Assembly (NCBI GenBank): GCA_900751885.1
Contig: CAADTH010000050.1
Coordinates: 132,431 to 164,430 of the forward strand
Length of the DNA: 32,000 nucleotides
Direction: 5' to 3'
Source of the DNA: Clostridia bacterium
Lineage (GTDB): Bacteria; Bacillota; Clostridia; UBA1381
Below the pieces are notes generated by a model. It was not told the DNA's origin, did no database searches, and worked only from the letters and a program-made list of their open reading frames with translations. Position 1 is the first letter of the stretch; every line of letters begins with the position of its first letter. Shown one piece after another: positions 3,001 through 25,602 of the stretch. A program made the translations under genes and the position numbers.

Positions 3001-4137
3001 GCTGGAAAGTGGATAATGACAAAAATGTTTACTACAAAATATGGAATTGAAGATATAAAAATCGGTACATATAAAGGCTTTAATATATACTTAACATCAC
3101 CCAAATCATTTATAGATAGTAATGAACTTATTTTACGAAATAATATGAGTTATCATGTTGACATTGGAAAAAGTGAAAGCGGTATTATTACCCGAATTGA
3201 TAATCAATTAAAAAGTATCGACAATTTAATAGCAAATACTGAGAAAAAAATATCTGAATTAGAAAAAAATATAGTTTTAGCTGAACAAGAATACAATACC
3301 CCATTTAAACACGATGATTTATTAAAAGAAAAATCTCAACGTCTACAAATTTTAAATAATGAACTTGATTTAAGTAAGCAAGAAGATGTTGTTGTTTATG
3401 ACGAAAACTTAAAGGAGAAAAATAATGAAGAAGAACTTTACCAAGAACAGGACAGACATTCTGAAAATAATGACGATGAACAAAATCTCACGCAAACAGA
3501 TTATCAAAAAAACACCGAGAATACGGAACATCAATCCCAGATAGAAAAAAAGCTCAAGATGCCTAATTTCTATAAAGGTATCAATTCTTATGATGAAAAT
3601 ACAGTTAATTTTCAAAATATAAAACCAATTAAATTAAAAGAAAATCCACTCGTATCTGCAAAAGAACCACTTCTGAACAAAAATTGTTCTATAATTGAAA
3701 ATTGGAATGAAATACATGAATTTAATAAATATCGTGAAATTAAAGCTATGATTACTCATATAGTTGAAATGAGTGGTCCACAATGGGCAGAATTCACACA
3801 AAATCTACTTGATAGCTATGAATTTCTTAAAGGTACTGGCGGCAGTGCCTCCACATATGAAATTCCACAGAAATATTCAGAAATTAACAACTTTTATTAT
3901 TTACCAAAAGATATACAAGAAGAATTTACAAAACAATCTTATAAAACATGTGTACTTGTTGTCAATTCATGTAATAATCATCAACTACTAATTGATGCAC
4001 AAGGATATGATTATGCCAGATATGCAAGTGAAACTAATGAATATATTGATGTAGATAAATTAAAAAAAGAATATAGTATTCTCTTGATTAATAATAATAC
4101 TTGCGCTGTAGATGATGAAGATGAATTAGAAATGTAA
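1..4137 (+). CDS. 3' part (about 1378 codons) of a giant polyvalent conjugative-element protein: SNF2/SF2 helicase module, coiled-coil region, acidic linker and C-terminal extension domain. The 5' end lies upstream of the window.
   Basis: Frame 1 has no stop from nt 1, so the GTG at 172 in the ORF track is not the true start. Helicase motifs read directly: [10 protein letters not shown] (motif I), [10 protein letters not shown] (DEAH, II), ATGTPISNS (III), [13 protein letters not shown] (V), [11 protein letters not shown] (VI). The size and position beside the relaxase/T4SS genes match the large helicase (often methylase-helicase) proteins of ICEs and plasmids. Confidence 0.85.
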
Positions 4138-4167
4138 CCTCGTGTAATTTTTGCACAAGGTTTTTTT
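4136..4167 (+). terminator. Copy 1 of the 26-nt palindromic element (AACCTCGTGTAATTTTTGCACAAGGT) followed by a T7 run; looks like an intrinsic terminator or attenuator.
   Basis: The hairpin arms ACCTCGTG / CACAAGGT have one mismatch. The element begins inside the TAA stop (4135-4137) and TTTTTTT follows immediately at 4162-4167. Confidence 0.6.
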
Positions 4168-4182
4168 ATTGGAGAGGATTTT

Positions 4183-5418
4183 ATGAAAAAAAGATTTACA
4201 GAGGAACAATTTCAAAAAGCATTAAAAGTACCGTTAGTACCCTTCATGCAACAACGTGGCTATAACCTTATTCAAAAGAGTAATGAATATCGTTGGAAAG
4301 ACCACGATAGTTTTGTAGTCAGTAATAACAAATGGCATTGGTTTAGTCGTGGAATGGGTGGTAATGTTATTAGTCTACTAACACGTGTAGAAAACATGGA
4401 TATGGTAGATGCTGTTTTATTACTAAATGAAGATGAATTAAATAATCATTATGAATCTATTCCACTTACAAATAATCAGGACTATCATAAACGAACATCA
4501 CAAAACATTGAATTAATTTCACCAAATAAAAATGAAACAAATAAACATATTGTTGCCTATCTTAATCAAATACGTGGTATTAGTATGAATATATTATATG
4601 ATGCCATCAATAGAAAACAACTTTACGAAAACAAAGAATTTTATGCAACAACGTGTACAAATATAGATGAAGATGGTGTAATACATCAAAAATCATTAAA
4701 AATAATTGACACTCCTACTCTGCAAAAACTTCAAAAATTTGGTCTGATTGAAAATGTGAATAAAAATATTTTTGGTATGGTATTATGCGAAGATAAGAAA
4801 AAAAATATAAAATATATGGTTGTTGAAAATGCAAATATAGCAACATTGGATGATTTAAAAAAACAAAATTTTATTGAAAAATACTCAATAGTCTATAATT
4901 GTGTATTTGCTGGAACTGATGATTCAGGAGTTTTGCGTTTTGCATCATTACGTGGAGCAAGCCAGTACAGCACCTTTAAAAAAGATTTAATAAACTCTAA
5001 TAAAGAGTACGTACCAATCATGCAAGGTAGAAGCAATACTGTATATGTGTTTGAAGCACCTATAGACATGTACAGTCATGCAACACTTTTTGAATCGTCA
5101 GGATTGGATTGGAAAAAAGATTATAGACTGTTTTTATCAGGAGTTAGTCCGATAGCGTTAGACCATTTTCTTGAATCTCACACGAATATTAATAATATTG
5201 GGTTTTGTCTGGATAACGATGAAACGGGACATGACACAGCGAAAAAATTTATGGAAATTTATTCTGATAGAGGTTACAATGTCAAAGCTTTTTTTCCAAA
5301 AACAAAAGACTATAATCAAGATTTAATTAATTGGAGGTCAAATCCTGTAAAACCATACTACATTGTAAAACACATACCTTCAATATCACAGATAAGTGAT
5401 GATGAAATAGAACTATAA
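4183..5418 (+). CDS. DUF3991/Toprim-domain protein (primase-like or topoisomerase-primase-fold DNA-processing protein of conjugative elements).
   Basis: SD GGAGAGG lies upstream of the ATG. The N-terminal region (YRWKDHDSFVVSNNKWHWFSRGMGGNVISLL) resembles the primase-like N-termini of ICE Toprim proteins. The C-terminal Toprim-like acidic motifs are FEAPIDMYS and CLDNDETGHDTAKKF. Confidence 0.7.
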   Translation: MKKRFTEEQFQKALKVPLVPFMQQRGYNLIQKSNEYRWKDHDSFVVSNNKWHWFSRGMGGNVISLLTRVENMDMVDAVLLLNEDELNNHYESIPLTNNQDYHKRTSQNIELISPNKNETNKHIVAYLNQIRGISMNILYDAINRKQLYENKEFYATTCTNIDEDGVIHQKSLKIIDTPTLQKLQKFGLIENVNKNIFGMVLCEDKKKNIKYMVVENANIATLDDLKKQNFIEKYSIVYNCVFAGTDDSGVLRFASLRGASQYSTFKKDLINSNKEYVPIMQGRSNTVYVFEAPIDMYSHATLFESSGLDWKKDYRLFLSGVSPIALDHFLESHTNINNIGFCLDNDETGHDTAKKFMEIYSDRGYNVKAFFPKTKDYNQDLINWRSNPVKPYYIVKHIPSISQISDDEIEL

Positions 5419-5442
5419 ATCTTATGCAATTCTGCACAAGGA
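5418..5442 (+). repeat. Copy 2 (degenerate, 25 nt) of the palindromic element: AATCTTATGCAATTCTGCACAAGGA.
   Basis: It starts at the last base of the TAA stop. The left arm matches the consensus at 8/10 positions, the right arm GCACAAGG is intact, and the loop is 1 nt shorter. Confidence 0.5.
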
Positions 5443-5468
5443 TTAATAAATAGAAAGGAATTATAAAA

Positions 5469-6098
5469 ATGTCATTTCATAATTTACCATACTTTAGTAT
5501 GTGGGGTAAAATTCAACATTGCAAGGAAATTGGAGATAATATTTATAGCGTTATTACAGCAGGACATGGAGGTATCATGATACCTACCGATATAGCTAAG
5601 CAAATTTTATCAAATAAAGCATTAATTAACGGTGTGGTTGAAGATGGTTACATACAATATGAAAAATATGCAAAAGAAATAAATCTAAAAGACATAGAAA
5701 AATATGGTAAGTATTGGTTGCCTGAGTATTTTGGGAATTATCTACCCCCTATTGAATCACCTACGGGAGATATAAAAAACATTTATGAATTATCAAATGG
5801 AGTTTTCCTAATTGAAAATGATAACGGATTAGAATTAGCAGTTCACAAGGAAAAAAGTAAATATATGCGTTATCAAAACAATGAATTGGGAGATTATAAA
5901 TATTTTCGTGAGTTTAATCCAGCCTTATTAGATAGACTATGTATAAATGAAAATTCTGATATTAAACATAAAATACAACAAATAACTGATGATTTAGGAG
6001 TTGATTCTCCTGTTATACAAAAAACAATCGAGAAATCCCAGAATATAGAAAATAAAATTGTGGCTGAAATAGAAGAAGATGAAGAACTATCAATTTAA
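5469..6098 (+). CDS. Conserved hypothetical protein with a WG...T(A)GHGG motif.
   Basis: SD AAAGGAA lies upstream of the ATG. The N-terminal MWGKIQHCKEIGDNIYSVITAGHGGIMIP resembles a domain of unknown function that I recall seeing on conjugative plasmids, but I cannot confirm the family name. The protein ends in the acidic tail EEDEELSI. Confidence 0.55.
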   Translation: MSFHNLPYFSMWGKIQHCKEIGDNIYSVITAGHGGIMIPTDIAKQILSNKALINGVVEDGYIQYEKYAKEINLKDIEKYGKYWLPEYFGNYLPPIESPTGDIKNIYELSNGVFLIENDNGLELAVHKEKSKYMRYQNNELGDYKYFREFNPALLDRLCINENSDIKHKIQQITDDLGVDSPVIQKTIEKSQNIENKIVAEIEEDEELSI

Positions 6099-6159
6099 TT
6101 TTCAGATATGTAAATTTATCTTTAGATGCAATAATCTTATAATAGTGTATTTTATATAT

Positions 6160-6260
6160 CGGCACGAAGTGACGGCAAGCTACTCATTTGTTGCACAAAC
6201 GCTTGATGGGCTTGCCCATACCCAAATAAATATATGGGTCTTACCCATACCCGCTAAAAA
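6160..6260 (+). other. Candidate origin of transfer (oriT), a GC-richer island directly upstream of mobC and the relaxase gene.
   Basis: Inverted repeat GGCAAGC (6174-6180) / GCTTGCC (6210-6216). Direct repeat TT[G/A]CCCATACCC at 6212-6223 and 6241-6252. Short palindrome ACCCA(N10)TGGGT at 6220-6239. The stretch is non-coding and lies where MobC/relaxase oriTs normally sit. The nick site cannot be assigned. Confidence 0.45.
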
Positions 6261-6274
6261 AACTGGAGGTACAC

Positions 6275-6595
6275 ATGAATAAAAATAAATATATCAGTTT
6301 TCGTGTAACTGAAAGTGAATACACCTTGATAAAATCTAAAGCAGAAAAAGCTGGTATGACAATATCAAAATTTGCAAGTAAATCCATATTAGGTCAAAAT
6401 ATCTATGTTATTAAAGGAGTTAAAGATTTTACACATCAATTATCAAAAATAGGAACAAATGTGAATCAGCTTGCAATCTTAGCTCATGATGGCAAATTAA
6501 AAGTAATTGATTTAAGTGAAACAAGAAAGGAGTTAAATATGATTTGGCAATCATTGAATTTATTAAGAAACCACCTAAAACAAAAGCAGGATTAA
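6275..6595 (+). CDS. mobC: MobC-family relaxosome accessory protein.
   Basis: SD GGAGG lies 6 nt upstream of the ATG. YISFRVTESEYTLIKSKAEKAGMTISKFASKSILG followed by IGTNVNQLA is the typical MobC (RHH-like plus helical) signature. The gene lies immediately upstream of, and overlaps, the relaxase gene. Confidence 0.8.
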   Translation: MNKNKYISFRVTESEYTLIKSKAEKAGMTISKFASKSILGQNIYVIKGVKDFTHQLSKIGTNVNQLAILAHDGKLKVIDLSETRKELNMIWQSLNLLRNHLKQKQD

Positions 6596-7539
6596 GAAGA
6601 TTGATTAATTATATTACCAATCTCGAAAAGACACAAGAACATCTTATTGGCGGATATAATTGTGATAGTCAGAATGCTTATTTTGAATTTATGAATATAA
6701 AAGAAATTTATCACAAAACAGATGGGATACAAGCAAGACATTTTATCCAATCATTTAAACCTGATGAATCATTAACACCAGAGATTGCAAAGGAAATTGC
6801 CGACAAATTAGTTCAATACGCTGATTTTAAAGAATTCCAATTAGTATATGCTGTTCATGTCAACACTGAACATTTACATACACACTTTGTTATAAACTCA
6901 GTCAACAATGAGACAGGACTTAGGTGGCATCAAACAGACACAGAGCTTCAGGAATTAAAAAACTATTCTGATAAATTATGTGAAGAATACGGACTCAATA
7001 TAATTACAAAAAAAGAAAAAGGACATAGAAGTCAAGGAGAATATAGAAACCAAAAAAAATCATCAAGCTGGAAACATGAACTATTTCTAGCTGTCAAACA
7101 TTGTTCCTCTATTGCTATTAGTAAAGACGATTTTATTAACAAAATGGCTGATTTAGGATACAAAGTTTTATGGACTGATAAAAAATATATAACATTTATT
7201 ACACCAGATAATAAAAAATGTAGGAATAATAAGCTCTACCCACAAGACAGATTTTCTAAAGAAAAATTACTTGATATGTTTGAAAACAATAAACGTATAC
7301 AAGACGAGCGAATTAAAATAAGCAATCAAATTCAAAATGAATTAGAACGGAGAAAGCATTGGAATAACTTTCTGTCCGTTCTTTCTTTATTTTCAGGCTC
7401 AAATGATAAAAGAAATAAAAAAAACCACTATCCCCTTTCTTATTTGGAAGGTGAAGCATTGAAAGAAGAATTACTTAAATTACAAAATCAAGGTGAAATT
7501 AATTGGGATGATGATGACAACGAAGATTATGAACTATAG
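6544..7539 (+). CDS. MobA/VirD2-type relaxase (relaxase/mobilization nuclease domain), short 331-aa form.
   Basis: TTG start with SD AAGGAG upstream, overlapping the end of mobC. The histidine triad is HVNTEHLHTHFVINSV. The N-terminus MAIIEFIKK...LRRLINYITN is typical of this family. The protein ends in the acidic tail DDDDNEDYEL. Confidence 0.85.
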   Translation: MAIIEFIKKPPKTKAGLRRLINYITNLEKTQEHLIGGYNCDSQNAYFEFMNIKEIYHKTDGIQARHFIQSFKPDESLTPEIAKEIADKLVQYADFKEFQLVYAVHVNTEHLHTHFVINSVNNETGLRWHQTDTELQELKNYSDKLCEEYGLNIITKKEKGHRSQGEYRNQKKSSSWKHELFLAVKHCSSIAISKDDFINKMADLGYKVLWTDKKYITFITPDNKKCRNNKLYPQDRFSKEKLLDMFENNKRIQDERIKISNQIQNELERRKHWNNFLSVLSLFSGSNDKRNKKNHYPLSYLEGEALKEELLKLQNQGEINWDDDDNEDYEL

Positions 7540-7550
7540 GAGGATTAATA

Positions 7551-7829
7551 ATGAAACAATTTGTCAATGGGATATATTTTGCTGTGATTGAAATACACAA
7601 TAATGGTCACTTGAGTTATTTATTTGTTCCACAAGTATCCGTGGAACAAAATAAAATAAATAATTATTCTGATAAACAGTCTATATTAGTTACTTACTAT
7701 ATTTATGGAGGAACTAAACCAACAAGAGCCTGTAATATGGATGAATTGAGTTTTTTTAAAAATAATTTTATGACACTATTTTCAAATGGTCAACTATATG
7801 TTGCATCTAAAGAAAATTTAACACACTAA
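7551..7829 (+). CDS. Hypothetical 92-aa protein.
   Basis: SD AGGAGGA lies upstream of the ATG and the ORF is tightly packed in the operon. I recognise no motif. Confidence 0.5.
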   Translation: MKQFVNGIYFAVIEIHNNGHLSYLFVPQVSVEQNKINNYSDKQSILVTYYIYGGTKPTRACNMDELSFFKNNFMTLFSNGQLYVASKENLTH

Positions 7830-7853
7830 CCTTGTGCAAAATTTACACAAGGT
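7828..7853 (+). repeat. Copy 3 of the palindromic element: AACCTTGTGCAAAATTTACACAAGGT.
   Basis: It begins inside the TAA stop (7827-7829). The stem is 8 bp (ACCTTGTG/CACAAGGT). There is no T-run, and the SD of the next gene follows 6 nt later. Confidence 0.75.
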
Positions 7854-7871
7854 CTGAAAGGAGGAATTACT

Positions 7872-8324
7872 ATAAAAAAACGAAGTATAATAGCAATTAT
7901 CTTACTAATATCTACTATATTTTTAAATATTTATATCTCTACAATAATACATCAGTTACTTAGTAGTGGTTTTGAAAAAATTATTCTACCTCATTTTAAT
8001 GAATGTATAACCAGTATATCAGCAAACCGCCAGCATCTAATTATATTTTTAACAACTGAGTTATTCATTTTAATGGGGATTATACTATTATTATTTAATC
8101 GTTGGGGAGATTACGCAAGCAAAATGCAAACTATTACTAACGAAATAAAAACTCCTGTCCCAGCAGGACAAAAACAACATGGTTCAGCAAGGTGGTTATA
8201 TCCCAAAGAATATAAAACAACTTTTAATGTTGCAAAAGTTTTTAGATTTGACAAAAAAATAAAATATTTAATACAACATGGTCGGGATGATTTGGATTTT
8301 TTAAAAGGAGGTAAAAATGAATGA
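7872..8324 (+). CDS. N-terminal membrane segment of a VirD4/TraG-type coupling protein (T4CP), encoded as a separate ORF with an apparent non-canonical ATA start.
   Basis: The frame is open from 7830. GGAGG at 7860-7864 is followed 7 nt later by ATA at 7872. There is no ATG, GTG or TTG before 8073, and starting at 8073 would delete the first predicted TM helix. The translation gives two TM helices (IIAIILLISTIFLNIYISTII and LIIFLTTELFILMGIILLLF) followed by HGSARW, the conserved post-TM motif of VirD4/TraG proteins. Confidence 0.55.
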   Translation: MKKRSIIAIILLISTIFLNIYISTIIHQLLSSGFEKIILPHFNECITSISANRQHLIIFLTTELFILMGIILLLFNRWGDYASKMQTITNEIKTPVPAGQKQHGSARWLYPKEYKTTFNVAKVFRFDKKIKYLIQHGRDDLDFLKGGKNE

Positions 8325-8481
8325 ATTTGAAAAATTTGACCGTATGATGCGACAAAATAGAGGTATACGATTCCCTACATTCTCACCTGATTTCAAAAAG
8401 AAAAAACCAATAGATAAATCACATAAAAAAATAAACGATAGGAGCAAAATAGATGAAACTTCAAATTATAAAGATAAATAA
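8317..8481 (+). CDS. Possible small basic protein (54 aa).
   Basis: ATG at 8317 lies 5 nt after SD AAAGGAGGT and overlaps the stop of the preceding ORF. Translation: MNEFEKFDRMMRQNRGIRFPTFSPDFKKKKPIDKSHKKINDRSKIDETSNYKDK. It is too short to be in the supplied track, and no homology is recognisable. Confidence 0.25.
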   Translation: MNEFEKFDRMMRQNRGIRFPTFSPDFKKKKPIDKSHKKINDRSKIDETSNYKDK

Positions 8482-8902
8482 TACAATAGATTTTGGGCTT
8501 ATAAAAAATCATCCTTATCATAGTATTCCAGCAGGGCAAAAATTACGTATGGAATTTTTACATAATAATATACGAATTGGAACTATGTACTGGGTGAAAC
8601 CCTCATATATGACGGAATCACAAAATACTGTTTTAGAATTAAAACATATATGTTTTGTAAAAAATGTCCCATTTGACCTAAAACTAAAAGCTATAAAAAT
8701 GGCAAGAAAGTATATACGCAAACATTTACGGTTTATTAATGGACTTATTACAGTATGTAAAGAAGAGGAAATAATAACGAACAAATTATTTTCTAATGAT
8801 AATTGGTTTCCTATATTGCAACATATGATTCCACAGGTCACGAAATCTGATGATATTTGGGACGGATATACTGTTGAAAAAACGTTAGCTAGAACACCAT
8901 AA
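8453..8902 (+). CDS. 149-aa protein inserted between the two T4CP halves; possibly a GNAT/Mom-like acyltransferase fold (tentative).
   Basis: SD AGGAG lies 8 nt upstream of the ATG. The pattern NHPYHSIPAGQKLRMEF...IGTMYWVKPS...TVLELKHICF resembles the (H)HY..P.G...fg...G....P.....LEL.R signature I recall for Mom-like/GNAT-fold phage and plasmid proteins. This rests on memory of a motif, not on a search. Confidence 0.5.
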   Translation: MKLQIIKINNTIDFGLIKNHPYHSIPAGQKLRMEFLHNNIRIGTMYWVKPSYMTESQNTVLELKHICFVKNVPFDLKLKAIKMARKYIRKHLRFINGLITVCKEEEIITNKLFSNDNWFPILQHMIPQVTKSDDIWDGYTVEKTLARTP

Positions 8903-8916
8903 GGAGGTATACTGAT

Positions 8917-10479
8917 TTGTTTGAAAATTTATTTGAATATATTTATAATTCAAAACAAAAATTAAAAAAACAGCTAAAAATTTGTGATAAACCGTTATAT
9001 CCTAGCGGTGGCATTTGTATTGGAATCACCAAACATTTAATGCACGAAGATATTTACTATGTTGGTACAGATACCCACAGCTTATGTATTGGAGCAACTC
9101 GTTCTGGAAAATCCAGAAATGTTGTATTACAAAGTATAGGCTTACAAGCTCTGGCAGAAGAAAATATTATATGTTCAGACCCTAAAGGCGAATTAATGCA
9201 ATACACTCTCCCCTTTCTGGAACGTTTAGGATACAAAGTTTTTACATTGGATTTCAAAAATTCATTGAAAAGTTCACGATACAATTATCTAAAACCCATT
9301 ATTGATTATATGAAAGAAGATAATATAGCAAAAGCTATAGAAGCAACATGGGATATGGTTGCATCTTTAGTTCCTGACGGTCAACATACAGAACCAATAT
9401 GGCAAAATGGAGAAGCTTCTGTAATTGCTGGTTCTATAATGGCTGTAGTTTTTGATAATATGGAAAGACCTCAATTTCAAAATCTCGCCAACGTTTATCA
9501 TTTTATTAGTGAAATGTGCAGAACAATTAATGGAACAATGCCTTTAAACCAATATATTAATTCTTTATCTGAACAACATCCAGCCAGAGCATTGATGGGA
9601 ATTAGTGAAGTTGCCCCAAGTAAGACACGTGGAAGTTTCTTCACAAGTGCCTTAACAACACTACGTTTATTTACAAATCCTTATGTTGCAGATATGACAA
9701 TGGATAGTGACTTTGACGCAGAAAAGTTTGATAATAATAAATCTGCTGTATTTCTAATATTACCTGATGAAAAAACCACCTATTACAGTCTTGCATCATT
9801 ATTTGTCACTCAATTTTACGAACAACTTGTCAAAATCGCAGATGAACGTGGAGGACAGCTAAAAAGACGTACTAATTTTAATTTGGATGAGTTTGGGAAT
9901 TTTACTAAAATCCCATCATTTACGACTAAATTAACAGTCGGTGGCGGTAGACTTATTCGATTCCATCTACATATACAAGCTATAAATCAATTAGAAGAAA
10001 AGTATGGAAAAGAAATGCAACCTACTATATTAGGTAACTGTCAAACATGGATATATTTAAGAAGTGACGAAAATGATACAAGGAAAATGATTAGTGAAAA
10101 ATTAGGAACCTATACAGTAGCTACTTCATCACATAGCACTCAGTTTAATGGTTCAGCATTCGCTCCTGCAAATTTATCAGCAAGCTGTAATCTTACAAGC
10201 AGACCATTACTTACTGCTGATGAAGTGGGAATGATTAACCGACCTTATAGTCTTATAATGTCACGAGCTTATCCAGCTATTATGATTGCACCAGACATTT
10301 CACAATGTTATTTTAATGATATGTATGGTCTTGGAGATTCCGAACATAATCGTAAGTTACGTGAAGAGAGAGAAAGTAAGCGGAAGTCACGTACTTGTAT
10401 TGATAATATTCCTCTTTGGGGTATTTGGAATTTATATAATGGTTCTTTAAATATTGGCGGTGCAACACCAAATTTTTAA
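8917..10479 (+). CDS. VirD4/TraG-type coupling protein, nucleotide-binding and all-alpha domains (C-terminal part of the split T4CP).
   Basis: TTG start 8 nt after SD AAGGAGG. Walker A is IGATRSGKSR. The Walker B region is NFNLDEFGNFTKIP. The family-typical HIQAINQLEEKYGKE (Qs..QL...YG) is present. No TM segment is present in this ORF. Confidence 0.85.
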   Translation: MFENLFEYIYNSKQKLKKQLKICDKPLYPSGGICIGITKHLMHEDIYYVGTDTHSLCIGATRSGKSRNVVLQSIGLQALAEENIICSDPKGELMQYTLPFLERLGYKVFTLDFKNSLKSSRYNYLKPIIDYMKEDNIAKAIEATWDMVASLVPDGQHTEPIWQNGEASVIAGSIMAVVFDNMERPQFQNLANVYHFISEMCRTINGTMPLNQYINSLSEQHPARALMGISEVAPSKTRGSFFTSALTTLRLFTNPYVADMTMDSDFDAEKFDNNKSAVFLILPDEKTTYYSLASLFVTQFYEQLVKIADERGGQLKRRTNFNLDEFGNFTKIPSFTTKLTVGGGRLIRFHLHIQAINQLEEKYGKEMQPTILGNCQTWIYLRSDENDTRKMISEKLGTYTVATSSHSTQFNGSAFAPANLSASCNLTSRPLLTADEVGMINRPYSLIMSRAYPAIMIAPDISQCYFNDMYGLGDSEHNRKLREERESKRKSRTCIDNIPLWGIWNLYNGSLNIGGATPNF

Positions 10480-10498
10480 AATAGAAAGGATAAGAAAC

Positions 10499-10840
10499 AT
10501 GAAAAAATTTATTTATTATATAAAAAATAAAACTACAACTATTATTTCTCTAATTATGCTATTTTTCATAAAGACACAAAATGTATTTGCTGAAACACTT
10601 GAAGGTAGTAAAATTGCTACAGGTACAAAAAATCTAATTAATGATGCGACTAAATGGTTATTGGTATTAGCGCCAACAGTCACAGTGTTGCTTATTATTT
10701 ACTATTTAATTCGTAAAGGAATGGCTGATGAACAAGAACACAAGAAATGGAATAGTCGTATCATGGTGGCACTTGTTAGTTGTATTGGCGCAGTAGTTGC
10801 TAGTGTATTAATTAATGTTTTAACAAGCTATTTTAAATAA
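10499..10840 (+). CDS. Small secreted or membrane protein with VirB2/TrbC-like topology (signal peptide plus two hydrophobic helices).
   Basis: The ATG at 10499 has SD GAAAGGA 8 nt upstream, whereas the track start at 10454 lies inside the T4CP gene. Signal peptide ...TQNVFA/ET, then helices WLLVLAPTVTVLLIIYYLI and IMVALVSCIGAVVASVLINVL. The call rests on topology and position only. Confidence 0.45.
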   Translation: MKKFIYYIKNKTTTIISLIMLFFIKTQNVFAETLEGSKIATGTKNLINDATKWLLVLAPTVTVLLIIYYLIRKGMADEQEHKKWNSRIMVALVSCIGAVVASVLINVLTSYFK

Positions 10841-10870
10841 GGAACAGCCGAATTAGAAAAGAGGTGCATT

Positions 10871-11704: not shown

Positions 11705-11715
11705 GAGAATTAGTT

Positions 11716-11922
11716 ATGAATTTAGTTGATGATATATCAAGAATGTTAATATGGCTTATTCGTGCTGGTCTTACATTTCGAGTGTTATATTGCTGTTTTC
11801 GGTTAATTATGGCAGATGAAGAAGCAAATACATATAAGACAAGATTAAAGAATTCTCTTATATTTGCTGTGATTATAGAATTGGTATGGATAATTAAATC
11901 ATTAGTAATAAGTTATTTTTAA
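11716..11922 (+). CDS. Small membrane protein (68 aa).
   Basis: SD TAGGAGAA lies upstream of the ATG. Two hydrophobic segments are present. Function unknown. Confidence 0.45.
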   Translation: MNLVDDISRMLIWLIRAGLTFRVLYCCFRLIMADEEANTYKTRLKNSLIFAVIIELVWIIKSLVISYF

Positions 11923-11946
11923 CCTTGTGCGAATTTTGCACAAGGT
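11921..11946 (+). repeat. Copy 4 of the palindromic element: AACCTTGTGCGAATTTTGCACAAGGT.
   Basis: It begins inside the TAA stop (11920-11922). The stem is a perfect 9 bp (ACCTTGTGC/GCACAAGGT) with a 7-nt loop, followed by TTTT and then the SD of the next gene. Confidence 0.8.
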
Positions 11947-11966
11947 TTTTGAGTGGAGGTTATATT

Positions 11967-12293
11967 ATGGAAAATGAACAGCATCAAAAACTATATATGC
12001 CTAATAACGTTAAAACTCGTAGTGAATTTTTTAACGGTTTTGGGTTTACAGAATTATATCAAGCAATAGGAATTGTACTAATTGTTGGCGGTATATCAGT
12101 CCTAGCATTTTTAATTCATGGAAATTTACCTATACTGATATTATCTATATTAATTATCTGTGCCGTAGCGGTTACTATTCTTACAAAAGATGCAACAAAC
12201 CAAAGTGTTATTGATTACACAAAACATATGATACATTTTGCACATATTCAAAAAACATATCCATATCATTACAATCAGGAGGATTTCAAATGA
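11967..12293 (+). CDS. PrgI-family / VirB3-like T4SS membrane protein.
   Basis: The ATG at 11967 has SD GGAGG upstream, whereas the track start at 11925 lies inside the palindrome. YMPNNVKTRSEFFNGFGFTELYQAIGIVLIVGG followed by a second TM helix matches the PrgI-family pattern. Its stop overlaps the next start (ATGA). Confidence 0.65.
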   Translation: MENEQHQKLYMPNNVKTRSEFFNGFGFTELYQAIGIVLIVGGISVLAFLIHGNLPILILSILIICAVAVTILTKDATNQSVIDYTKHMIHFAHIQKTYPYHYNQEDFK

Positions 12294-12898: not shown

Positions 12899-12899
12899 T

Positions 12900-14750: not shown

Positions 14751-14787
14751 CAATTTGTTTTCAAAATTTAATTGGAGGTTACGTATT

Positions 14788-20700: not shown

Positions 20701-22650
20701 ATAATAACTATTTATCATACACCATCTATTAATATTATTACTAAAGATGCTGATACGATTTATAATGATTTTGTAGTTGAAACTCAATTAAATGATGTTG
20801 ATGAATCAAGATACACGTATAAATGGTTTATTAGATATAATAATGGAGAAAAAATAAATATTGATAAATATGCAAGTACGAATTTTAATATTAATGGTGG
20901 TACACTTTCTTTTTACGAAAGCGGTAACTATACTATATATCTTGAACTAACAGATAATTTAGAAAATATTTTCTTATATGAAAAAAATATAAAAGTTGAT
21001 AATAAATCATCTGTTAATTTTACATTACAAGGAACAGGCTATATAGGAATTGAAAATAAGATAATTTCCTCTTTAAATGGAGATAACTTAACCATCGAAT
21101 GGTCAATAAGTAAAAATGGTAATACACGTCAACCTTATCTTTATTATGCTGATGGCATACTAAATAATGATGGTGGTTCAATAACTTTTGATAAAGTAGG
21201 GACTTATACTGTTTATGCTATTATCGTAGATAAATACGGAAACTCTTACATAACACAAAGACTCATTACAATAGAAGAATTACCGACTGCTAACGTTATT
21301 ATTCCTCCATACACACATACCGACACTACAATAACAGCAGTGGCTAATTCTGTTATTAGTCAAAGTGGGATAGAATGGTACGTTAAAGATACTCAGACTA
21401 ATAAAACACTTCCATATTCAAATTATTGTAAAGGGAATCTATCATCTTCTGGAGGAGAAATTAAATTTATTAATGCTGGATTTTATGAACTTATAGCAAG
21501 AGTTAAAGGAAGTGACGGCAAGACATTTGATTATAATGCACCTATTCATGTATACCCTACCCCAACCTTAGATACAAATGTTCCTACTTCTTTACACATA
21601 TGTGATTCTTTCTTTTTAAATCTTACTCCATTGAATACTTATCCTAATACAAGTGTAACATGGAGCGTTAAGAAAGATGGTTTAGATGTTGATAACTGGG
21701 ATTATATTTCTCAAAATAGCAATGGTTCTTTATATTTTTCAGAATTTGGGAACTATAAAATAACTGTTAATGTAAAAGATGAAGTTGGACGTATATTTGA
21801 ATTTATAAGCTATATTTTAGTATATAATATTAACCCTGATATGCCTACAGTACAAATTAATAAAACAAGAAATTATAAAAATAATAAATATTACGTCGAA
21901 CTCATTCCAAAAGCTACAGATTCAGATGGAGATTCTGTAACTTATGAGTATGAAAATAAACCTAATGACAACTATTACCCACTAGGTTATACATATGTAC
22001 ATGTTCGAGCAAAAGATATACATGGTGCATATTCTCCCTGGAAAACCGTTACAGTATATGTATCAAATGATTCTCCGTCAGCTCCAACGTTAACACGAAC
22101 TCCTGATAGCGCAAGCATAGAGCCTAATACACCAGTTATAATACAAGCAAGTGGTTCTGTTGACCCTGATGGTGACGCAATACACTATGTTTGGTCTGGT
22201 ATACGAAGTAATAATATCTATCCTTTAGGAAAAAATATTGTAACTTGTAAAGCCGTAGATAATGCTGGAGCAGAATCAAGCTCTACTGCAATGGTCTTTT
22301 TTGTAGCAAATGAAACACAAGGTGGCGGTATGGAACTTACAGGACCCGATTCAACTATTATTGAAGAAGGTATTGAAGGAGCTACTATTACTGGATATAC
22401 ATTTACTGTTCCTCAAGTTTCAGGTCATAATAGCAGTAATGATTTTGGCAGAATACGAGGATATAACATTCAAACAAAATCATGGGAGGAAATTGATTAT
22501 AAATCAACTAATAATGGTGTAGTAATGACCCAAACCCTAGAAAAAGGTAAATATAGCAAATTGGAATTTTATTACTATACAGACCATAACTGTATGTATA
22601 ACCATAGTAACATAACATATGACGTAAGTTTTGATTTTCCATCAAACTAA
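14788..22650 (+). CDS. Giant (2620-aa) secreted, SLH-anchored surface protein with about 23 tandem Ig/PKD-like modules; putative mating adhesin.
   Basis: The ATG at 14788 has SD GGAGG upstream. The signal peptide is MNKRFTSLLLVFTIVISLGANVMA. There are three SLH domains (about 14860-15405; motifs DVPDSHWAAEYIELL, FSDVLDTHWAKKDIERL, ITRAEVFKILC). The repeat array follows, then two DxDGD modules (TDSDGDSVTYEY, VDPDGDAIHYVW) and a terminal beta-rich domain. No LPXTG motif is present. Confidence 0.9.
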   Translation: MNKRFTSLLLVFTIVISLGANVMASNYNDVPDSHWAAEYIELLTQKGILKGTPKGECLPDQNITRAELSALISRNYDQDEYVDMAVNTFSDVLDTHWAKKDIERLVKHSVILPNEYKNGFYPDINASRIEMIRMIVRWLNKDSNVPSKMTPTGFSDDIDLSPEDRGYINVARDIGLISGYPDNSLKPQNPITRAEVFKILCIGLNEKSKPSYFIIFGGNSSGSGSQKTVPKPTVEFALSPYAHTDTEIEVSTKNKNVKSIIWQIRKYDNEQKKYNKVDINNVINGSLNDSGGTIRFNQSGKYEIVAIASNSKGTEYEYKKEINIYDVPTLTLQLNENEYIDNEINIILTNNIDSLNHNIDWYITDETGQKQHYTEFTNGELSKNGGTIKFKTDGKYIISANLTDETNRVFTIEKAITIFPIPIINITANEKVMIDEHVPINIVLNHIGDKEIKWFISKNNDIKPYNEYAKGILSNDGGSIYFENQGQYELIAQVTDELNKQFEYSTSIKVYPIPILNFNLPETAHTDSIINIENNFNNIDGLDVCWKIQKESSEPTDYTEYVSGELSNTGGKIVFKEEGAYTLTANIVNELGKTYSFSDTIIIYPVISPILSVPSVSHIDSTFHISLSDTERQNVEWKISKNNSELQPYNNFTDNILSVNGGNIQLKQDGKYKIVAIITDVTGRQFITESTIIIYPIPTVNFDIPIYAHTDTQIEINPITTNIENNEITWTIIKDDIEKPYNEYVTGELHQNGGTITFLNNGTYSIKATFEDASGRKFESLKTIKIYTIPIVEFGEFGLPNIAHTDTSILIKPELTNIENLKIEWLISKNQTDPLPYNEYVDGSLENTGGTIKFKDKGEYELIAMITDDVGRKYTYNSNTKIYPVPIINLNVPDIGHTDSLININNDNSELNNLDIIWSMTKDGSTEQDYSIFTSGKLNNTGGTISILQKGNYVLIATVIDETGRVFSSSSNLKIYPVPDILIYAPKSAHTDTPINITTKTNELDNLTIKWSIKNNDNNSDIDYFTNNGGTIHLESQGEYIIIATVIDETGRSFKSETQIKIYPIPDLSFDIPLYSHTDTQFSVITHFCDVNNTVSWYVNEENQVLSSNGGTLLLSQKGDYNITSQVTDDTGRTFKYTKSINVYPVPIVNFRRDSNAEFVLPEYGYVNQSITIIPELKELNDLSIKWLISKDGKEAKDYSAYAQGIMTADGGILTFPNTGQYNLIAQISDKVNRVFEYTESIIINSTPSLSFNMPEHSYKEESINITAVGAENNTFEWKISKDNKNPQPYTEYVDGILETNGGSIKFKESGNYNLIFTVTDEAGKVFSFSKRIKILDIPNVEITLPDNTHIGETVKITPKIEHADNLKIQWKLNNKPYQYFANGTLSDNGGSIEFVIPGEYILSATMINEYGREFVYTSNIIKVYDNLYPSFISPLYSSINTDVRITVLEGNNIKWTIQYNNDAEQDYNNVVDGMITDNGGTISFTKAGNYTIIATTTDTIGKEFKYTQNIKIYDIPTVTINCNEKYHANEEINLFTDLTNMEGLEINWTISKDGNVAENYLKYASGVLTKDGGTIFIKEPGEYNIIALVTDKLGISHEFSKTVHIIDVPYIDLNMPQSAFINENINIKVNNYSNDNSINWLIKKGDDTAQDLLTYADGVLNEQGGTIKFKSEGHYTIIAEITDSLNSKHQYSKEIDIFHSSSLKLTTPQYSYINANIKILVEANNLQKTSLKWQISRDNGELENYITYANGTLTDDGGSISFDAPGIYKVVATGYDQLNNIVTSEATINIFELPNIGITMPSTAHTNKAVIVATTNQNTEDATVSWYISKDGDEEQIYTKYVTGELNKNGGYITFNESGSYTVFAKVVDRNGKTFKYHSTITIYDNPEIGIDIVSESYINKSIKILINSSGLKDISWSIAKNGKNAENYLKYATGTLTNIGGSISFDEAGTYKIIASSVDDTGENHIAESIITIYHTPSINIITKDADTIYNDFVVETQLNDVDESRYTYKWFIRYNNGEKINIDKYASTNFNINGGTLSFYESGNYTIYLELTDNLENIFLYEKNIKVDNKSSVNFTLQGTGYIGIENKIISSLNGDNLTIEWSISKNGNTRQPYLYYADGILNNDGGSITFDKVGTYTVYAIIVDKYGNSYITQRLITIEELPTANVIIPPYTHTDTTITAVANSVISQSGIEWYVKDTQTNKTLPYSNYCKGNLSSSGGEIKFINAGFYELIARVKGSDGKTFDYNAPIHVYPTPTLDTNVPTSLHICDSFFLNLTPLNTYPNTSVTWSVKKDGLDVDNWDYISQNSNGSLYFSEFGNYKITVNVKDEVGRIFEFISYILVYNINPDMPTVQINKTRNYKNNKYYVELIPKATDSDGDSVTYEYENKPNDNYYPLGYTYVHVRAKDIHGAYSPWKTVTVYVSNDSPSAPTLTRTPDSASIEPNTPVIIQASGSVDPDGDAIHYVWSGIRSNNIYPLGKNIVTCKAVDNAGAESSSTAMVFFVANETQGGGMELTGPDSTIIEEGIEGATITGYTFTVPQVSGHNSSNDFGRIRGYNIQTKSWEEIDYKSTNNGVVMTQTLEKGKYSKLEFYYYTDHNCMYNHSNITYDVSFDFPSN
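15478..21828 (+). repeat. About 23 tandem, diverged, roughly 276-nt (92-aa) coding repeats within the adhesin gene.
   Basis: The recurrent protein pattern is (I/V)P..(F).P..AHTD..I.I....N...L.I.W.I.K......Y..Y..G.L...GG.I.F...G.Y.LIA...D..GR.F.....I.IYP. I counted the modules by eye in the translation. The copies are too diverged to form long identical DNA repeats. Confidence 0.85.
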
Positions 22651-22656
22651 GATAAT

Positions 22657-22688
22657 AAAAGCGGCTATCAACTGATAGCCGCTTTTTA
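22657..22688 (+). terminator. Rho-independent terminator after the adhesin gene.
   Basis: AAAA GCGGCTATC AACT GATAGCCGC TTTTT. The stem is a perfect 9 bp and GC-rich, with a 4-nt loop, a T5 tail and a flanking A-run. Confidence 0.8.
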
Positions 22689-22689
22689 A

Positions 22690-23472
22690 TTGGAGGTGAG
22701 TAAAATAGACCCTGCAACTGCAAAGATAATAATACAAATTGTAATACAGTCTTTAAAGGATGAAGAAACACGCAAACGTTTACTTATGGTTATACTTGCG
22801 CCAGTTGTAACTACCTTGTTATTGATAACACTAATATTTTATTTATTAACATCACCAATAGAAGCATTAGGAGCATTATTTAATAATGATGAACATACAC
22901 AATACGTAAATGATTTGCAAACAAACTATGGTTTTTATGGTGATGGTGCAGTAATTGACATTACAGGAGAATATCGTGAAAGTGAAATGCCATTATTTAT
23001 TCAATGGGATAATAGATGGGGAATGTACCCCTATGGTCGTAGTGGAACTATCGCATCATCAGCTTGCGGTCCAACATCAATGGCTATGATAGTTGTTGCA
23101 TTTACAGGAAAAACAAATGTGAACCCTAAAACTATGGCAGATTGGAGTGTCGCACATGGGCATCGGGTAGAAGGAGTAGGAACAGCATGGTCATTTTTCC
23201 CAGATGCGGCACAAAGCTATGGATTTAATTGTTCACAGTTATCCGTTAATGCATCAGATATTTCAAATTCTTTACGAAATAACAAACCAGTAATTGCAAG
23301 TATGGGACCAGGACATTTTACGAGAGGAGGTCACTTTATCGTTTTACGTGGTATTACTAGTGATGGAAAGATACTCGTAAATGACCCTAACAGTCGTGAA
23401 AAAAGTGAAAAAGCATGGGATATAAGCATTATTGTCAATGAAGCAAAAGCGGCGTGGAGTTTTTATAAATAA
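22690..23472 (+). CDS. Membrane-anchored C39-like (papain-fold) cysteine peptidase; probable T4SS-associated cell-wall hydrolase.
   Basis: An N-terminal TM helix (VILAPVVTTLLLITLIFYLL) is followed by the catalytic-Cys context SSACGPTSMAMIV and the His context GGHFIVLRG...VNDPN. The start is uncertain. The track uses TTG at 22690, but the strong SD GGAGGTGA (22692-22699) is best spaced for the in-frame ATA at 22705. The next ATG (22786) has no SD. Confidence 0.65.
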   Translation: MEVSKIDPATAKIIIQIVIQSLKDEETRKRLLMVILAPVVTTLLLITLIFYLLTSPIEALGALFNNDEHTQYVNDLQTNYGFYGDGAVIDITGEYRESEMPLFIQWDNRWGMYPYGRSGTIASSACGPTSMAMIVVAFTGKTNVNPKTMADWSVAHGHRVEGVGTAWSFFPDAAQSYGFNCSQLSVNASDISNSLRNNKPVIASMGPGHFTRGGHFIVLRGITSDGKILVNDPNSREKSEKAWDISIIVNEAKAAWSFYK

Positions 23473-23491
23473 AAAGAAAGGGGTGAATTTT

Positions 23492-23650
23492 TTGAGTAGT
23501 AATAAAAAAGTTATTGAACTATGTGTGTTAATCGTTATTGTCATATTATTTCTAATTCTTCGAGTATCAGGGACAATGCCTACCCCTCCTAAAATGGATA
23601 TGCCACTACCACCCGATAACACACCTCCAGTAATTGAGCAAGTTCAATAA
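23492..23650 (+). CDS. Small single-pass membrane protein with a proline-rich tail (52 aa).
   Basis: TTG at 23492 has SD AAAGGGGTGA upstream. The TM helix is VIELCVLIVIVILFLILRV and the tail is PTPPKMDMPLPPDNTPPV. The track start at 23432 overlaps the previous gene. Confidence 0.4.
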   Translation: MSSNKKVIELCVLIVIVILFLILRVSGTMPTPPKMDMPLPPDNTPPVIEQVQ

Positions 23651-23670
23651 TTGATATAGCATAATTAAGA

Positions 23671-24867
23671 TTGGAAGTGATTATTTTGATTTATTATATT
23701 ACAAAGCAAGAACATTTGGAACTAGTTCAAGAAGTCTGCGCTGTAAAAGATTTAGCCATTGATTGTGAAATAAACATTGATGATATTCAATGTTTTGTAA
23801 ATCAGGAACTGAAAAAACTACGGCATGTTAAACATTTTATTATTGATGTCTCTGTTTTAAAAAATTCAGAGACAGATATTATGAGTGCTATAATCAGTAT
23901 GAAAATGATGACTCAGGCACAAATTAGCATTGTAGCTTTAGGATATTCTCTCACTCATAATTTAATTCAAGAATTAATTAAGTGCGGAATCTACAATATT
24001 GTTACAAGCAATGATAAACATAATGCTCAACAAGAAGTGGAGAAATGTTTATCTGATAGTGGTATATCTAAAACTGATTTAATACCTGAAAATCAAAACC
24101 CTTTCATGTCAGATTCTCTATCTAGTACGATAAAAACAGAAAAACCATTAGATACCAAAATACCACCTATTAAAGATGAAAATATAAATCTATCTCCTAA
24201 ACCACTCTCCACTAGTAAGAAAAGTTTAATAAAAGATAGTGTTACCATTGGAGTATGCGGAACACAACATCATATTGGGACTACCCATCATGCGATTGCT
24301 CTTACTGCATCACTAATTAATTTAGGATATAAAGCATGTTATTTAGAAGCAAACGTTCATGGAGATATACAGCGATTAGTCGAGGTATATGATGATGATG
24401 AAAGCATAGATGATGATGGTGCATTAACCTGGGGTGGCGTACAAATGTATAGCAATTATTATTTTAATGACGTTACAAAATTAGATTATCAGTTCTATGT
24501 ATACGATTATGGAGTTTGTAGCGAGGTATCATCGCAAGAATATTTGACAAAAGACATTAAGGTATTAGTTACAGGCTCTAAAGCATGGGAATATCAATTA
24601 TATCTTGATATTGTTAATCATATATCTAAAGCTAAAAACCTACATACTATTATGAATTTTGCTCCAATTATAGACCAAGACCAACTTGCTTATAAAGGTA
24701 TGGAACAGACAACGTATTTTCCTCAGTATGCCCCATGCCCATTTGAAGATAGAAACAATGATAATATTTATATTAAAATTATTGAATCTTTTTTAGACAT
24801 AAACCAGCCAAATCAAGTAGATAATACTACAAAAAGAAAATGGTTCTTTAGAAAGGAAAGAAAATAA
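23671..24867 (+). CDS. tadZ: TadZ-like protein: N-terminal receiver-like domain, Pro/Ser-rich linker and a ParA/MinD-like domain with a degenerate P-loop.
   Basis: The alpha/beta N-domain has the pattern (HFIIDVSVL...ISIVALG...IYNIVTS). The C-domain aligns with the ParA/MinD fold (VTIGVCGTQHHIGTTHHAIALTASLINLGYKACYLEAN), but both Walker A lysines are replaced. The start is ambiguous (TTG 23671, GTG 23677 or TTG 23686). Confidence 0.5.
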   Translation: MEVIILIYYITKQEHLELVQEVCAVKDLAIDCEINIDDIQCFVNQELKKLRHVKHFIIDVSVLKNSETDIMSAIISMKMMTQAQISIVALGYSLTHNLIQELIKCGIYNIVTSNDKHNAQQEVEKCLSDSGISKTDLIPENQNPFMSDSLSSTIKTEKPLDTKIPPIKDENINLSPKPLSTSKKSLIKDSVTIGVCGTQHHIGTTHHAIALTASLINLGYKACYLEANVHGDIQRLVEVYDDDESIDDDGALTWGGVQMYSNYYFNDVTKLDYQFYVYDYGVCSEVSSQEYLTKDIKVLVTGSKAWEYQLYLDIVNHISKAKNLHTIMNFAPIIDQDQLAYKGMEQTTYFPQYAPCPFEDRNNDNIYIKIIESFLDINQPNQVDNTTKRKWFFRKERK

Positions 24868-25578
24868 ATGAAGATAAAACTAAATACAAAATTTTTAAAA
24901 AATAAATATGTGCTATCTACCCTATGTATGATTCTATCTGCCATTATCGCTTTTATTATTGTACCTAACAAAGAAAAGCACAAATATGATACTATTAAAA
25001 TAGTACGAACCAACCAGACTATAGAAGCCAACACTTTAATCAATGAAAGTATGTTAAAGACTATAGAGGTTATGCCTTTAAATCTTCCAGATGATATAAT
25101 TACAGATATTAATACAATTATAGGTAAATATACCACTGTACCACTGTTACCATCTGATAACTTAGTATCAAATAAATTTGCAGACACCTCTTCTTTAACA
25201 AAAGCACTATTCAAAAATGAAGATGGTAAATTAGCTGTATCTGTAAGTATCAAGAATTTAGCCGCAAGTGTATCAGGTAAATTGTTACCTGGTGATGTTG
25301 TATCTGTCTACACGTATAATACAGAAGATAAATCATTGATTGAATATGAAGATTTAAAACACGTTGAAATTTTGGCTATAACCAACGATAAAGGTGATGA
25401 TTTAAATAGTGATATATCTAGTAATAATGAAGATAATAATGATAATATTCCTGCTACAATAACGTTATCCGTAAACCAGAATCAAGCAAAAGAATTAATC
25501 AAAGCTGAAAACAGTGGGAATATACATATTGTATTTGCTGGTCGTGGAGAATATGGTAAAAAATTATTAAATCCTTAA
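24868..25578 (+). CDS. cpaB: CpaB/RcpC-like Flp pilus assembly protein (N-terminal TM plus SAF domain).
   Basis: The ATG immediately follows the previous stop. The TM helix is VLSTLCMILSAIIAFIIV. SAF-like region: IVRTNQTIEANTLINESMLKTIEV...IGKYTTVPLLPSDNLVSNKF. The C-terminal beta-rich region ends ...NIHIVFAGRG. Confidence 0.7.
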   Translation: MKIKLNTKFLKNKYVLSTLCMILSAIIAFIIVPNKEKHKYDTIKIVRTNQTIEANTLINESMLKTIEVMPLNLPDDIITDINTIIGKYTTVPLLPSDNLVSNKFADTSSLTKALFKNEDGKLAVSVSIKNLAASVSGKLLPGDVVSVYTYNTEDKSLIEYEDLKHVEILAITNDKGDDLNSDISSNNEDNNDNIPATITLSVNQNQAKELIKAENSGNIHIVFAGRGEYGKKLLNP

Positions 25579-25602
25579 CCTTGTGCGAAAATTGCACAAG
25601 GT
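25577..25602 (+). repeat. Copy 5 of the palindromic element: AACCTTGTGCGAAAATTGCACAAGGT.
   Basis: It begins inside the TAA stop (25576-25578). The stem is a perfect 9 bp with a 7-nt loop. It lies inside the Tad block, and no clean T-run follows. Confidence 0.8.

Follow-up and report, generated by a model that had tools for sequence, protein, structure and literature searches.

Long conjugation operons must stay silent and then be expressed in fixed proportions, and in Gram-positive bacteria the mechanism is known for few plasmids. Repetitive extragenic palindromes (REPs) can stabilise upstream mRNA, and those within ~15 nt of a stop codon reportedly affect translation of the upstream gene (Liang, Rudd and Deutscher 2015). 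The KorB (OB) and KorA (OA) operators scattered over IncP-1 plasmids act on read-through transcription; OB is a 13-bp palindrome, often promoter-linked, that needs a ParB-family protein. Lambdoid phages carry two copies of boxB near promoters, each a 5-bp stem with a conserved loop that co-varies with its reader, N; the promoter early stem-loop (PeSL) cassettes of T4-type phages have been associated with the shuffling of modules, and T7 uses its RNase III sites in mRNA processing. In Gram-positive conjugation operons, internal terminators are overridden by a dedicated antitermination system (conAn of pLS20; PMC8191782), and intergenic stem-loops set subunit stoichiometry in clostridial operons (cip-cel, PMC4423207; ABC transporter operons, PMC9045158). 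The subject here is a palindrome repeated at gene boundaries in 32,000 nt of contig CAADTH010000050.1 from a member of the Clostridia (the whole stretch is called the window), a one-strand gene array of 30% G+C that belongs to a clostridial-type conjugative element.

Copies of the palindrome

The pattern ACCTTGTGC-N7-GCACAAGGT, with ≤3 mismatches, matches the window exactly four times, at 4137, 7829, 11922 and 25578 (0.02 expected by chance; 100 shuffles), and permitting a 6-nt centre adds a degenerate fifth copy at 5419-5442. Alignment with relatives makes a 27-nt dyad of two 12-nt arms around a 3-nt A/T centre the best description of the unit, with the window consensus AACCTTGTGC(R)A-NNN-TTGCACAAGGTT for the four gap-free copies and the degenerate one. 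An earlier, sequence-only reading of the window had listed these five; the pattern search confirms them, and a sixth copy and a relic now join the list. In the lines below, bits are scores under a covariance model built on 15 palindrome copies, energies are those of predicted RNA hairpins, and L numbers label the loci compared.

4136..4162, + strand: copy 1, AACCTCGTGTAA-TTT-TTGCACAAGGTT; 39.3 bits; -10.1 kcal/mol; overlaps the stop (TAA) of the helicase/methylase gene; T7 comes next, with a Shine-Dalgarno sequence 10 nt downstream; two arm mismatches, uncompensated.
5418..5444, + strand: degenerate copy, AATCTTATGCA-ATTC-TGCACAAGGATT; 32.1 bits; -6.9 kcal/mol; one base shorter; begins at the final base of the TAA of the DUF3991/Toprim gene; its A-opposite-C mismatch is the one that predominates in the sister lineage.
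7828..7854, + strand: copy, AACCTTGTGCAA-AAT-TTACACAAGGTC; 39.7 bits; overlaps the TAA of a 92-aa open reading frame (ORF) 3' of the relaxase gene; Shine-Dalgarno sequence 4 nt downstream.
11921..11947, + strand: copy, AACCTTGTGCGA-ATT-TTGCACAAGGTT; 49 bits; -16.1 kcal/mol; overlaps the TAA of a 68-aa gene 3' of TrbL, a PrgI-like gene being next; the TTT that follows joins the TT of the arm to give five T in succession.
25577..25603, + strand: copy, AACCTTGTGCGA-AAA-TTGCACAAGGTC; 41.3 bits; -16.6 kcal/mol; overlaps the TAA of the RcpC/CpaB gene, a TadZ-like ParA gene being next; positional counterpart of copies just upstream of TadZ in L153, L154, L159 and L070.
7624..7649, + strand: relic of a sister-type palindrome, TTGTTCCA-N10-TGGAACAA (0/100 shuffles); inside ORF 7551-7829, 84 nt 3' of the relaxase stop codon; inner arms identical to the relatives' TTCC variant, outer AACC/GGTT lost; a weak covariance-model match (L067 6747-6786, 16 bits).
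L163 19658-19684 (~window coordinate 50,790): sixth copy, on the same contig outside the window, ~19 kb further along the element; 40 nt 3' of a stop codon; a 14-bp stem and then TTTTTTG; ends an operon.

Direct reading bears out the placement in stop codons that had been noticed before: all five window copies, which follow + strand genes, start within the upstream TAA or on its last base and end 4-20 nt 5' of a Shine-Dalgarno sequence, always at transcribed junctions between same-strand genes. Intergenic gaps, summed, make up only ~3% of the window, so that a junction position for all five copies is very unlikely to be accidental. Relative to the stop codon the 5' arm starts at -2 to +4 nt, the sixth copy (40 nt after) excepted; the element's other junction hairpins start 4-14 nt after the stop, a looser placement. 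The ribosome footprint extends ~12-15 nt 3' of the A-site codon and would, at termination, take in the 5' arm completely. Predicted hairpin energies range from -6.9 to -18.2 kcal/mol (z-scores -2.4 to -5.5) on stems of 8-14 bp, and copies are spaced 1.2-13.6 kb apart, with whole genes in between.

Beyond the stop codon the flanks are not conserved. A longer repeat reaching into the upstream gene was considered and rejected: the shared GAAATGTRA comes from unrelated proteins that end in acidic ...E-M/I/L tails. A restriction-site reading of the palindrome centre was likewise dropped, the copies being inconsistent.

Distribution among related elements

The family is restricted to one clade of conjugative elements. 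The identity of TrbL homologues falls from 100% directly to ~74%, and about 100 related loci were compared. By the covariance model, members occur only in conjugative elements whose TrbL is ≥68% identical, at 1-7 copies per 20 kb; none occurs in >40 distant relatives (TrbL identity ≤64%). Elements with TrbL 68-75% identical carry the variant AACCTT(R)TTCCA-NNN-TGGAA(Y)AAGGTT (the TTCC type). Copies by locus are as follows.

L153 / L154: six copies and one decayed copy inside an ORF (L153 74-98).
L159: five copies and one partial.
L070: two copies.
L161: two copies, the innermost pair G-C in both.
L069 / L149: one copy, the fourth pair T-A.

Positions are shared as well as sequence. The junction after the 68-aa gene 3' of TrbL holds a family member in 6/6 clade elements examined and the junction just before TadZ in 4/5, and further junctions match between elements after DUF3991/Toprim and after or near the relaxase gene. 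Even the centre can be specific to a site: CCAAATCGG stands before TadZ in both L070 and L159. Such details, kept at equivalent junctions, indicate that the copies were inherited in place and not constantly re-copied. Flanking gene content at the copies differs between elements.

A scan of 185,579 representative genomes, one per species, found the exact motif in multiple copies in none; 66 single matches fall in unrelated phyla, at about chance level. The window copies are not among these matches, and the host genome therefore evidently lies outside the set, which leaves the scan silent on the window's own host. One chance match, L057 1076-1340 in a Bacteroidetes metagenome-assembled contig, proved to be ACCTTGTGCAAAACTTGCACAAGGT repeated six times in tandem at a period of 48 nt; this array, tandem or CRISPR-like, is unrelated. 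Neither motif variant (window or TTCC) was found in viral contigs; PLSDB yielded no nucleotide relative of the element and no TrbL protein match, Rfam 15 no window match at gathering score, and literature searches no description of such a palindrome family.

Some hairpins and insertions in the relatives deserve record. L159 6003-6043 is a perfect palindrome with 19-bp arms, GAGATATAACCTTATTCCA-ATT-TGGAATAAGGTTATATCTC, directly after a tyrosine integrase gene. In one sub-lineage, L149-L152, an IS110-family insertion (e.g., L149 10949-12115) separates TrbL from the 68-aa gene, a few hundred bases upstream of that element's sole palindrome copy; targeting of the palindrome by IS110 was rejected, since the insertion is upstream of the 68-aa gene and outside the palindrome. 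In each of the more distant relatives two junction hairpins nearly match one another, with sequences peculiar to that relative and unrelated to the palindrome: L104 1505-1528 and 9635-9658 (TGCCTGCCGGGAAACTGGCAGGCA twice), the L082 group at 9568 and 14259, L157 at 5019 and 7915, and others in L131, L136, L073 and L128. Reuse of one hairpin per element may be a wider habit of this conjugative-element family.

Concerted variation and sequence constraint

Copies within one element share one arm variant, and lineages differ (TGC type in the window, TTCC type in its sister): in every copy, two base pairs distinguish the window from the TTCC lineage and are changed on both sides. Across the alignment 88.8% of arm cells are paired and four pairs change on both sides between lineages, for a covariation score of 0.218 against 0.097 in shuffles, a value that 0/500 shuffles and no slid control reached and that is uncorrected for relatedness. 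Single copies also have compensated changes of their own (L069 at pair 4, L161 at pair 12). The sequence-only reading had held arm mismatches to be uncompensated; that is so inside the window and not between elements, where the arms change with compensation. By these alignments at least one lineage is seen to have switched all its sites in concert, and the TTCC-type relic at 7624-7649 fits a switch of type in the window's own lineage.

Conservation goes beyond folding. At the 68-aa/PrgI junction of TTCC-type elements the palindromes are 81-93% identical, against 39-58% at the third codon positions of the adjoining gene, whereas an unrelated control hairpin, found in the same elements between RcpC and methylase, retains a stem while its sequence changes freely, and it uses G.U on the mRNA strand. 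The constraint therefore acts on sequence as well as on structure, in keeping with the earlier preference for sequence-specific recognition over a generic hairpin. Judged by these comparisons, the palindrome is a real, non-random, sequence-constrained and lineage-specific junction signal.

The host element and its other signals

Annotation of the window supports the division into DNA-transfer, type IV secretion and Tad blocks over which the copies had been said to be spread. The genes run, in order, giant helicase/methylase, DUF3991/Toprim, DUF7007, NikA-like and MobA/VirD2-type relaxase; VirD4, TrbL_4, VirB4, a 2,620-aa SLH protein, a C39-like peptidase, RcpC, TadZ, TadA and a ribbon-helix-helix (RHH) protein follow. 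Beyond the window the element encodes a prepilin peptidase, a single-stranded-DNA-binding protein (SSB), RepA_N, three XRE repressors and a sigma-like protein. The XRE genes are three tandem paralogues on the opposite strand (L163 15957-17361), and a small ECF-like (extracytoplasmic function) sigma factor gene (L163 20116-20580) stands shortly after the sixth palindrome copy; the layout recalls the regulatory region of Tn916-type elements. The same DNA is present on metagenome contigs of 221 and 337 kb, and the earlier label 'plasmid' is unproven for an element on contigs of that size.

No palindrome copy lies inside any recognisable promoter region of the window or the downstream element. This tells against the earlier proposal of an operator for the RHH protein, whose gene has a strong promoter of its own at 30902-30930 (within 30874-30937), a near-consensus TTGACA-17-TATACT that is extended by TG. 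Beside the -35 hexamer of this promoter AAGGTGT can be read as a direct repeat, the two units 20 nt apart; they are likely the autoregulatory operator of the gene, and a more ordinary RHH operator. Behind the sixth copy a 250-nt gap contains promoter-like hexamers, with the palindrome ~20 nt upstream of the -35 hexamer. A promoter in or after the palindrome itself was rejected, because too little room is left before the Shine-Dalgarno sequence and the only fitting hexamers would start transcription past the start codon. An ECF-type -35 element (GGAAC) in the TTCC arm was rejected too: it is not conserved in the window variant, and the transcription start would fall inside the Shine-Dalgarno sequence.

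An oriT-like 15-mer, AAGTGACGGCAAGCT, is conserved on the + strand at 6167-6181, upstream of nikA, and is common to the window (region 6099-6274) and the gaps upstream of nikA in L153 and L154; we take it to resemble MOBQ nick regions. The region has no palindrome copy. The '67-aa ORF' called at 6079-6282 probably represents the oriT region instead of a gene.

Unrelated hairpins occupy other junctions of the same element (22657-22686, 29610-29629, 29922-29946 and L163 ~14720), several with T-runs and all with a Shine-Dalgarno sequence immediately 3'. They include a 13-bp stem after the 2,620-aa SLH gene, a canonical terminator after the TadC-like gene and one that follows the 215-aa gene downstream of the window. 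Junction hairpins are thus a general feature of the transfer operon.

Two features of the genes themselves may be added. In the DNA-processing region, many proteins that are not related to each other have an acidic C-terminal tail whose final residue is hydrophobic (...DDEDELEM*, ...SDDEIEL*, ...EEDEELSI*, ...DDDNEDYEL*, ...DEDEEDEI*, ...SSEDEEFEM*). The tails are encoded in the window at 4100-4137, 5390-5418, 6060-6098 and 7505-7539, in L153 at 460-503, 850-889, 1610-1654 and 3120-3164, in L159 at 5970-6011, 8290-8328 and 9120-9161, and in L161 at 2360-2402; they may be a common signal at the C terminus, for docking or for secretion. Downstream of the 7828 copy, the stretch 7854-8072 has a good Shine-Dalgarno sequence (GGAGG, ~7862) and no ATG, GTG or TTG for ~200 nt, while the frame of ORF 8073-8324 remains open upstream, toward the copy; that ORF may start at an unusual codon (ATA or ATT), or be a mis-called small membrane protein.

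What the palindrome may do

The reading that we favour, at a probability of about 0.4, is that the palindrome is a transcribed stem-loop that punctuates the operon, attenuating or stabilising its segments, and that it is read by a lineage-specific partner. The lineage-specific family would mark punctuation in long co-directional transfer operons, every copy being transcribed within the polycistronic mRNA. Because the 5' arm begins on the stop codon, the ribosome that ends the upstream gene would melt the hairpin, which could then re-form just upstream of the next ribosome-binding site and, folded, mark the block boundary. Where a U-run follows (at 4136, at 11921 and at the operon-end sixth copy) continuation of the transcript would be weakened or stopped; at the remaining copies the hairpin would guard the end of a processed stretch of mRNA. 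In both cases the result would be control over how much of the DNA-transfer, type IV secretion and Tad blocks is made relative to one another. In favour of the reading stand the transcribed stop-codon junctions, the lack of copies in promoter regions, the sixth copy at an operon end, the other junction hairpins of the element, the covariation of the arms, the sequence constraint and the precedents cited above. Partners that would change with the lineage might be, for example, a regulator that binds RNA, a nuclease or a factor for antitermination; the same arm at every boundary, conserved far beyond what a hairpin needs, suggests sequence-specific reading by such a partner. Observation establishes the copies, their placement at junctions, the confinement to one clade, the concerted variation and the constrained sequence; that RNA is the working form, that transcripts are affected and that a partner exists, we infer. 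A terminator role had been considered before; it fits only the three copies with U-runs 3' of the stem, at 4136 (T7), 11921 (T5) and the sixth copy (T6).

Several observations weigh against this reading. At 5418, 7828 and 25577 no U-run follows the stem, and most of the relatives' copies run into the Shine-Dalgarno sequence in the same way. Pair 7 behaves as a purine set separately in either half-site, and pairing there is not enriched. Among 28 non-Watson-Crick cells 26 are transitions, 17 of them A.C on the + strand (G.T on the - strand) and 9 G.U on the + strand; the excess of A.C over G.U argues that the stems are not optimised for the mRNA strand, and it is the - strand that folds better in 14/22 copies. 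These mismatch and strand counts, which are not phylogenetically independent, fit a double-stranded dyad or either strand about equally. The equivalent junctions of relatives with TrbL ≤64% are usually tight and have no hairpin, so the structure is not needed for the operon to work. Finally, the 52 kb of element examined contain no candidate RNA-binding protein, nuclease or antiterminator, and no NusG-like or CsrA-like protein; relaxed Pfam and NCBIfam scans of the small uncharacterised proteins gave nothing usable as a partner.

The mismatch pattern suits a double-stranded operator as well, a 27-bp dyad bound by an element-encoded dimeric regulator that would act as roadblock or silencer of read-through at each block boundary. 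The symmetry of the dyad up to its 3-bp A/T centre, arms of 12-14 bp (19 bp in one copy), strong conservation, half-sites that co-change in all copies of a lineage, mismatches without strand preference, a position 7 that is merely a purine in each half-site and the lineage-specific character of the system all fit. Yet no copy overlaps a recognisable promoter: gaps with promoter-like hexamers (RHH, oriT/nikA, post-sixth-copy) either are free of the palindrome or carry it ~20 nt 5' of the -35 hexamer. An operator also leaves the abutment on stop codons unexplained, has no ParB/KorB-like or other candidate protein in the 52 kb, and would require the protein to co-change with single copies that carry their own compensated changes (L069, L161). 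We regard it as rather unlikely. A structural hairpin without any specific partner, either a leaky terminator or an RNA stabiliser, with similarity arising by duplication of a convenient hairpin, would account for energies of -7 to -18 kcal/mol and the U-runs of three copies, and unrelated hairpins do serve at other junctions of the element. It has little probability: conservation exceeds structural need by far while the control hairpin drifts, the same two compensated changes appear in every copy of the window lineage, and the A.C mismatch persists on the mRNA strand.

Two further explanations look to DNA copying and DNA transfer. A REP-like, self-propagating palindrome or recombination linker would be spread and homogenised by DNA copying (through a transposase in trans, template switching between hairpins or gene conversion), tolerated only at junctions and perhaps used as a homology patch for module exchange. 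Short, imperfect, multi-copy, intergenic and lineage-specific palindromes right after stops are typical of REPs; homogenisation predicts concerted variation; close relatives have anywhere between 1 and 7 copies per 20 kb, decayed copies (window 7624, L153 74-98) have been engulfed by ORFs, gene content beside the copies varies, and distant relatives each have a two-copy junction hairpin of their own. Such copying is distinctly improbable all the same, given the site-specific signatures at equivalent junctions (CCAAATCGG in L070 and L159) that indicate vertical inheritance, conservation where synonymous sites are saturated, the absence of a Y1/RAYT transposase from every locus and of a GTAG-type head, and the exact motif in multiple copies in 0 of 185,579 representative genomes. 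Least probable, together with the partnerless hairpin, is a signal of the transferred single strand, in which hairpins in the recipient would be recognised by the primase-like DUF3991/Toprim protein, SSB or relaxase and would prime complementary-strand synthesis or organise the strand. The better folding of the - strand (14/22 copies), mismatches that are mostly G.T on that strand, the presence of genes for a Toprim protein, SSB and relaxase, and an L153 oriT-region hairpin of the same build (9-bp arms, ATT centre) would suit it; the strand bias is weak, however, and not independent across related copies, and L166 has a Toprim gene without the palindrome. If AAGTGACGGCAAGCT on the + strand, with its presumed MOBQ likeness, is the nicked strand, then it is the + strand that is transferred, and this explanation, too, leaves the stop-codon abutment unaccounted for.

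A speculative extension, doubtful to about the same degree as the DNA operator, would have the palindromes serve as sites in cis for a form of operon-wide control not yet described in Gram-positive conjugative elements. A sequence-specific reader encoded by the element, of the RNA hairpin or of the DNA dyad, would gate every block boundary of the ~50-kb operon, and reader and sites would switch specificity together (TGC versus TTCC), leaving relics behind. The main appeal of the palindrome lies in the concerted switch between lineages and the strict stop-codon placement. An element-specific, reusable boundary signal would be a compact way to insulate and dose DNA-processing, secretion-channel and pilus modules, and the palindrome would help to annotate where modules end in clostridial elements that are uncultured. 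The TGC and TTCC lineages, together with the surviving trace of the alternative type, would be a natural experiment on specificity change in a multi-site recognition system. If the palindrome only copies itself, the finding is of modest importance.

Comparison with known systems

REPs and bacterial interspersed mosaic elements of enterobacteria resemble the palindrome in being short, imperfect, multi-copy and strictly intergenic, often just after stops within operons. They differ in that there are here only 6-7 copies, on a mobile element, with no GTAG head or RAYT (no Y1_Tnp match in the window or any related locus compared) and no genome-wide family in representative genomes, and in that copies at equivalent junctions are conserved between diverged elements. 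The terminators of pLS20 are likewise hairpins, located between conjugation genes or at their ends, and their operon too is very long and has to be read through; they are unrelated to each other in sequence and have U-tracts, whereas here one sequence is reused and at least half of the copies have none. No conAn-like gene pair was identified in the element. The cip-cel and ABC transporter stem-loops are likewise intergenic, at cistron 3' ends and in Clostridia, but are individually distinct, with effects that scale with folding energy, whereas the palindrome is conserved in sequence and repeated.

Likeness to the KorB and KorA operators lies in a palindrome repeated over a conjugative replicon, with one regulator holding all transfer blocks. 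Here, however, the sites are on stop codons and away from promoters; neither the 52 kb nor the related loci hold a ParBc-family match, and the sole ParA-like gene is the TadZ of the pilus operon. The unit of 27 bp, with 12-bp arms and a 3-bp centre, also differs from the spacerless palindrome of 13-16 bp of parS or OB. With boxB the palindrome has in common the small transcribed hairpin of element-specific sequence; it differs in its 6-7 copies at gene boundaries, conserved 12-bp arms and variable centre. PeSL cassettes and T7 RNase III sites are also repeated, similar stem-loops at module boundaries of a mobile genome. No promoter is attached to the palindrome, unlike PeSLs, and its 12-bp stems are too short for RNase III, the classical site of which is ~20 bp of double-stranded RNA.

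Other repeat classes part from the palindrome on their defining features. Integron attC sites are ≥57 bp with R''-L''/L'-R' boxes, against a 27-nt unit in which the GTTRRRY core is not conserved; no IntI was found, and the tyrosine recombinases of L149 and L159 are ordinary Phage_integrase matches. The inverted repeats of oriT form a single site next to nic, as opposed to multiple copies of which none is in the oriT-like region, and CRISPR repeats are separated by ~30-nt spacers, not whole genes. In its testable defining features the palindrome departs from REP/RAYT, parS/OB, attC, oriT repeats, CRISPR and RNase III sites, and in part from terminators. If a reader exists, boxB with N or the KorB operators would be the nearer models; in its likely way of working, the palindrome appears most like intercistronic REPs, the stoichiometry-setting stem-loops of clostridia or the internal terminators of conjugation operons.

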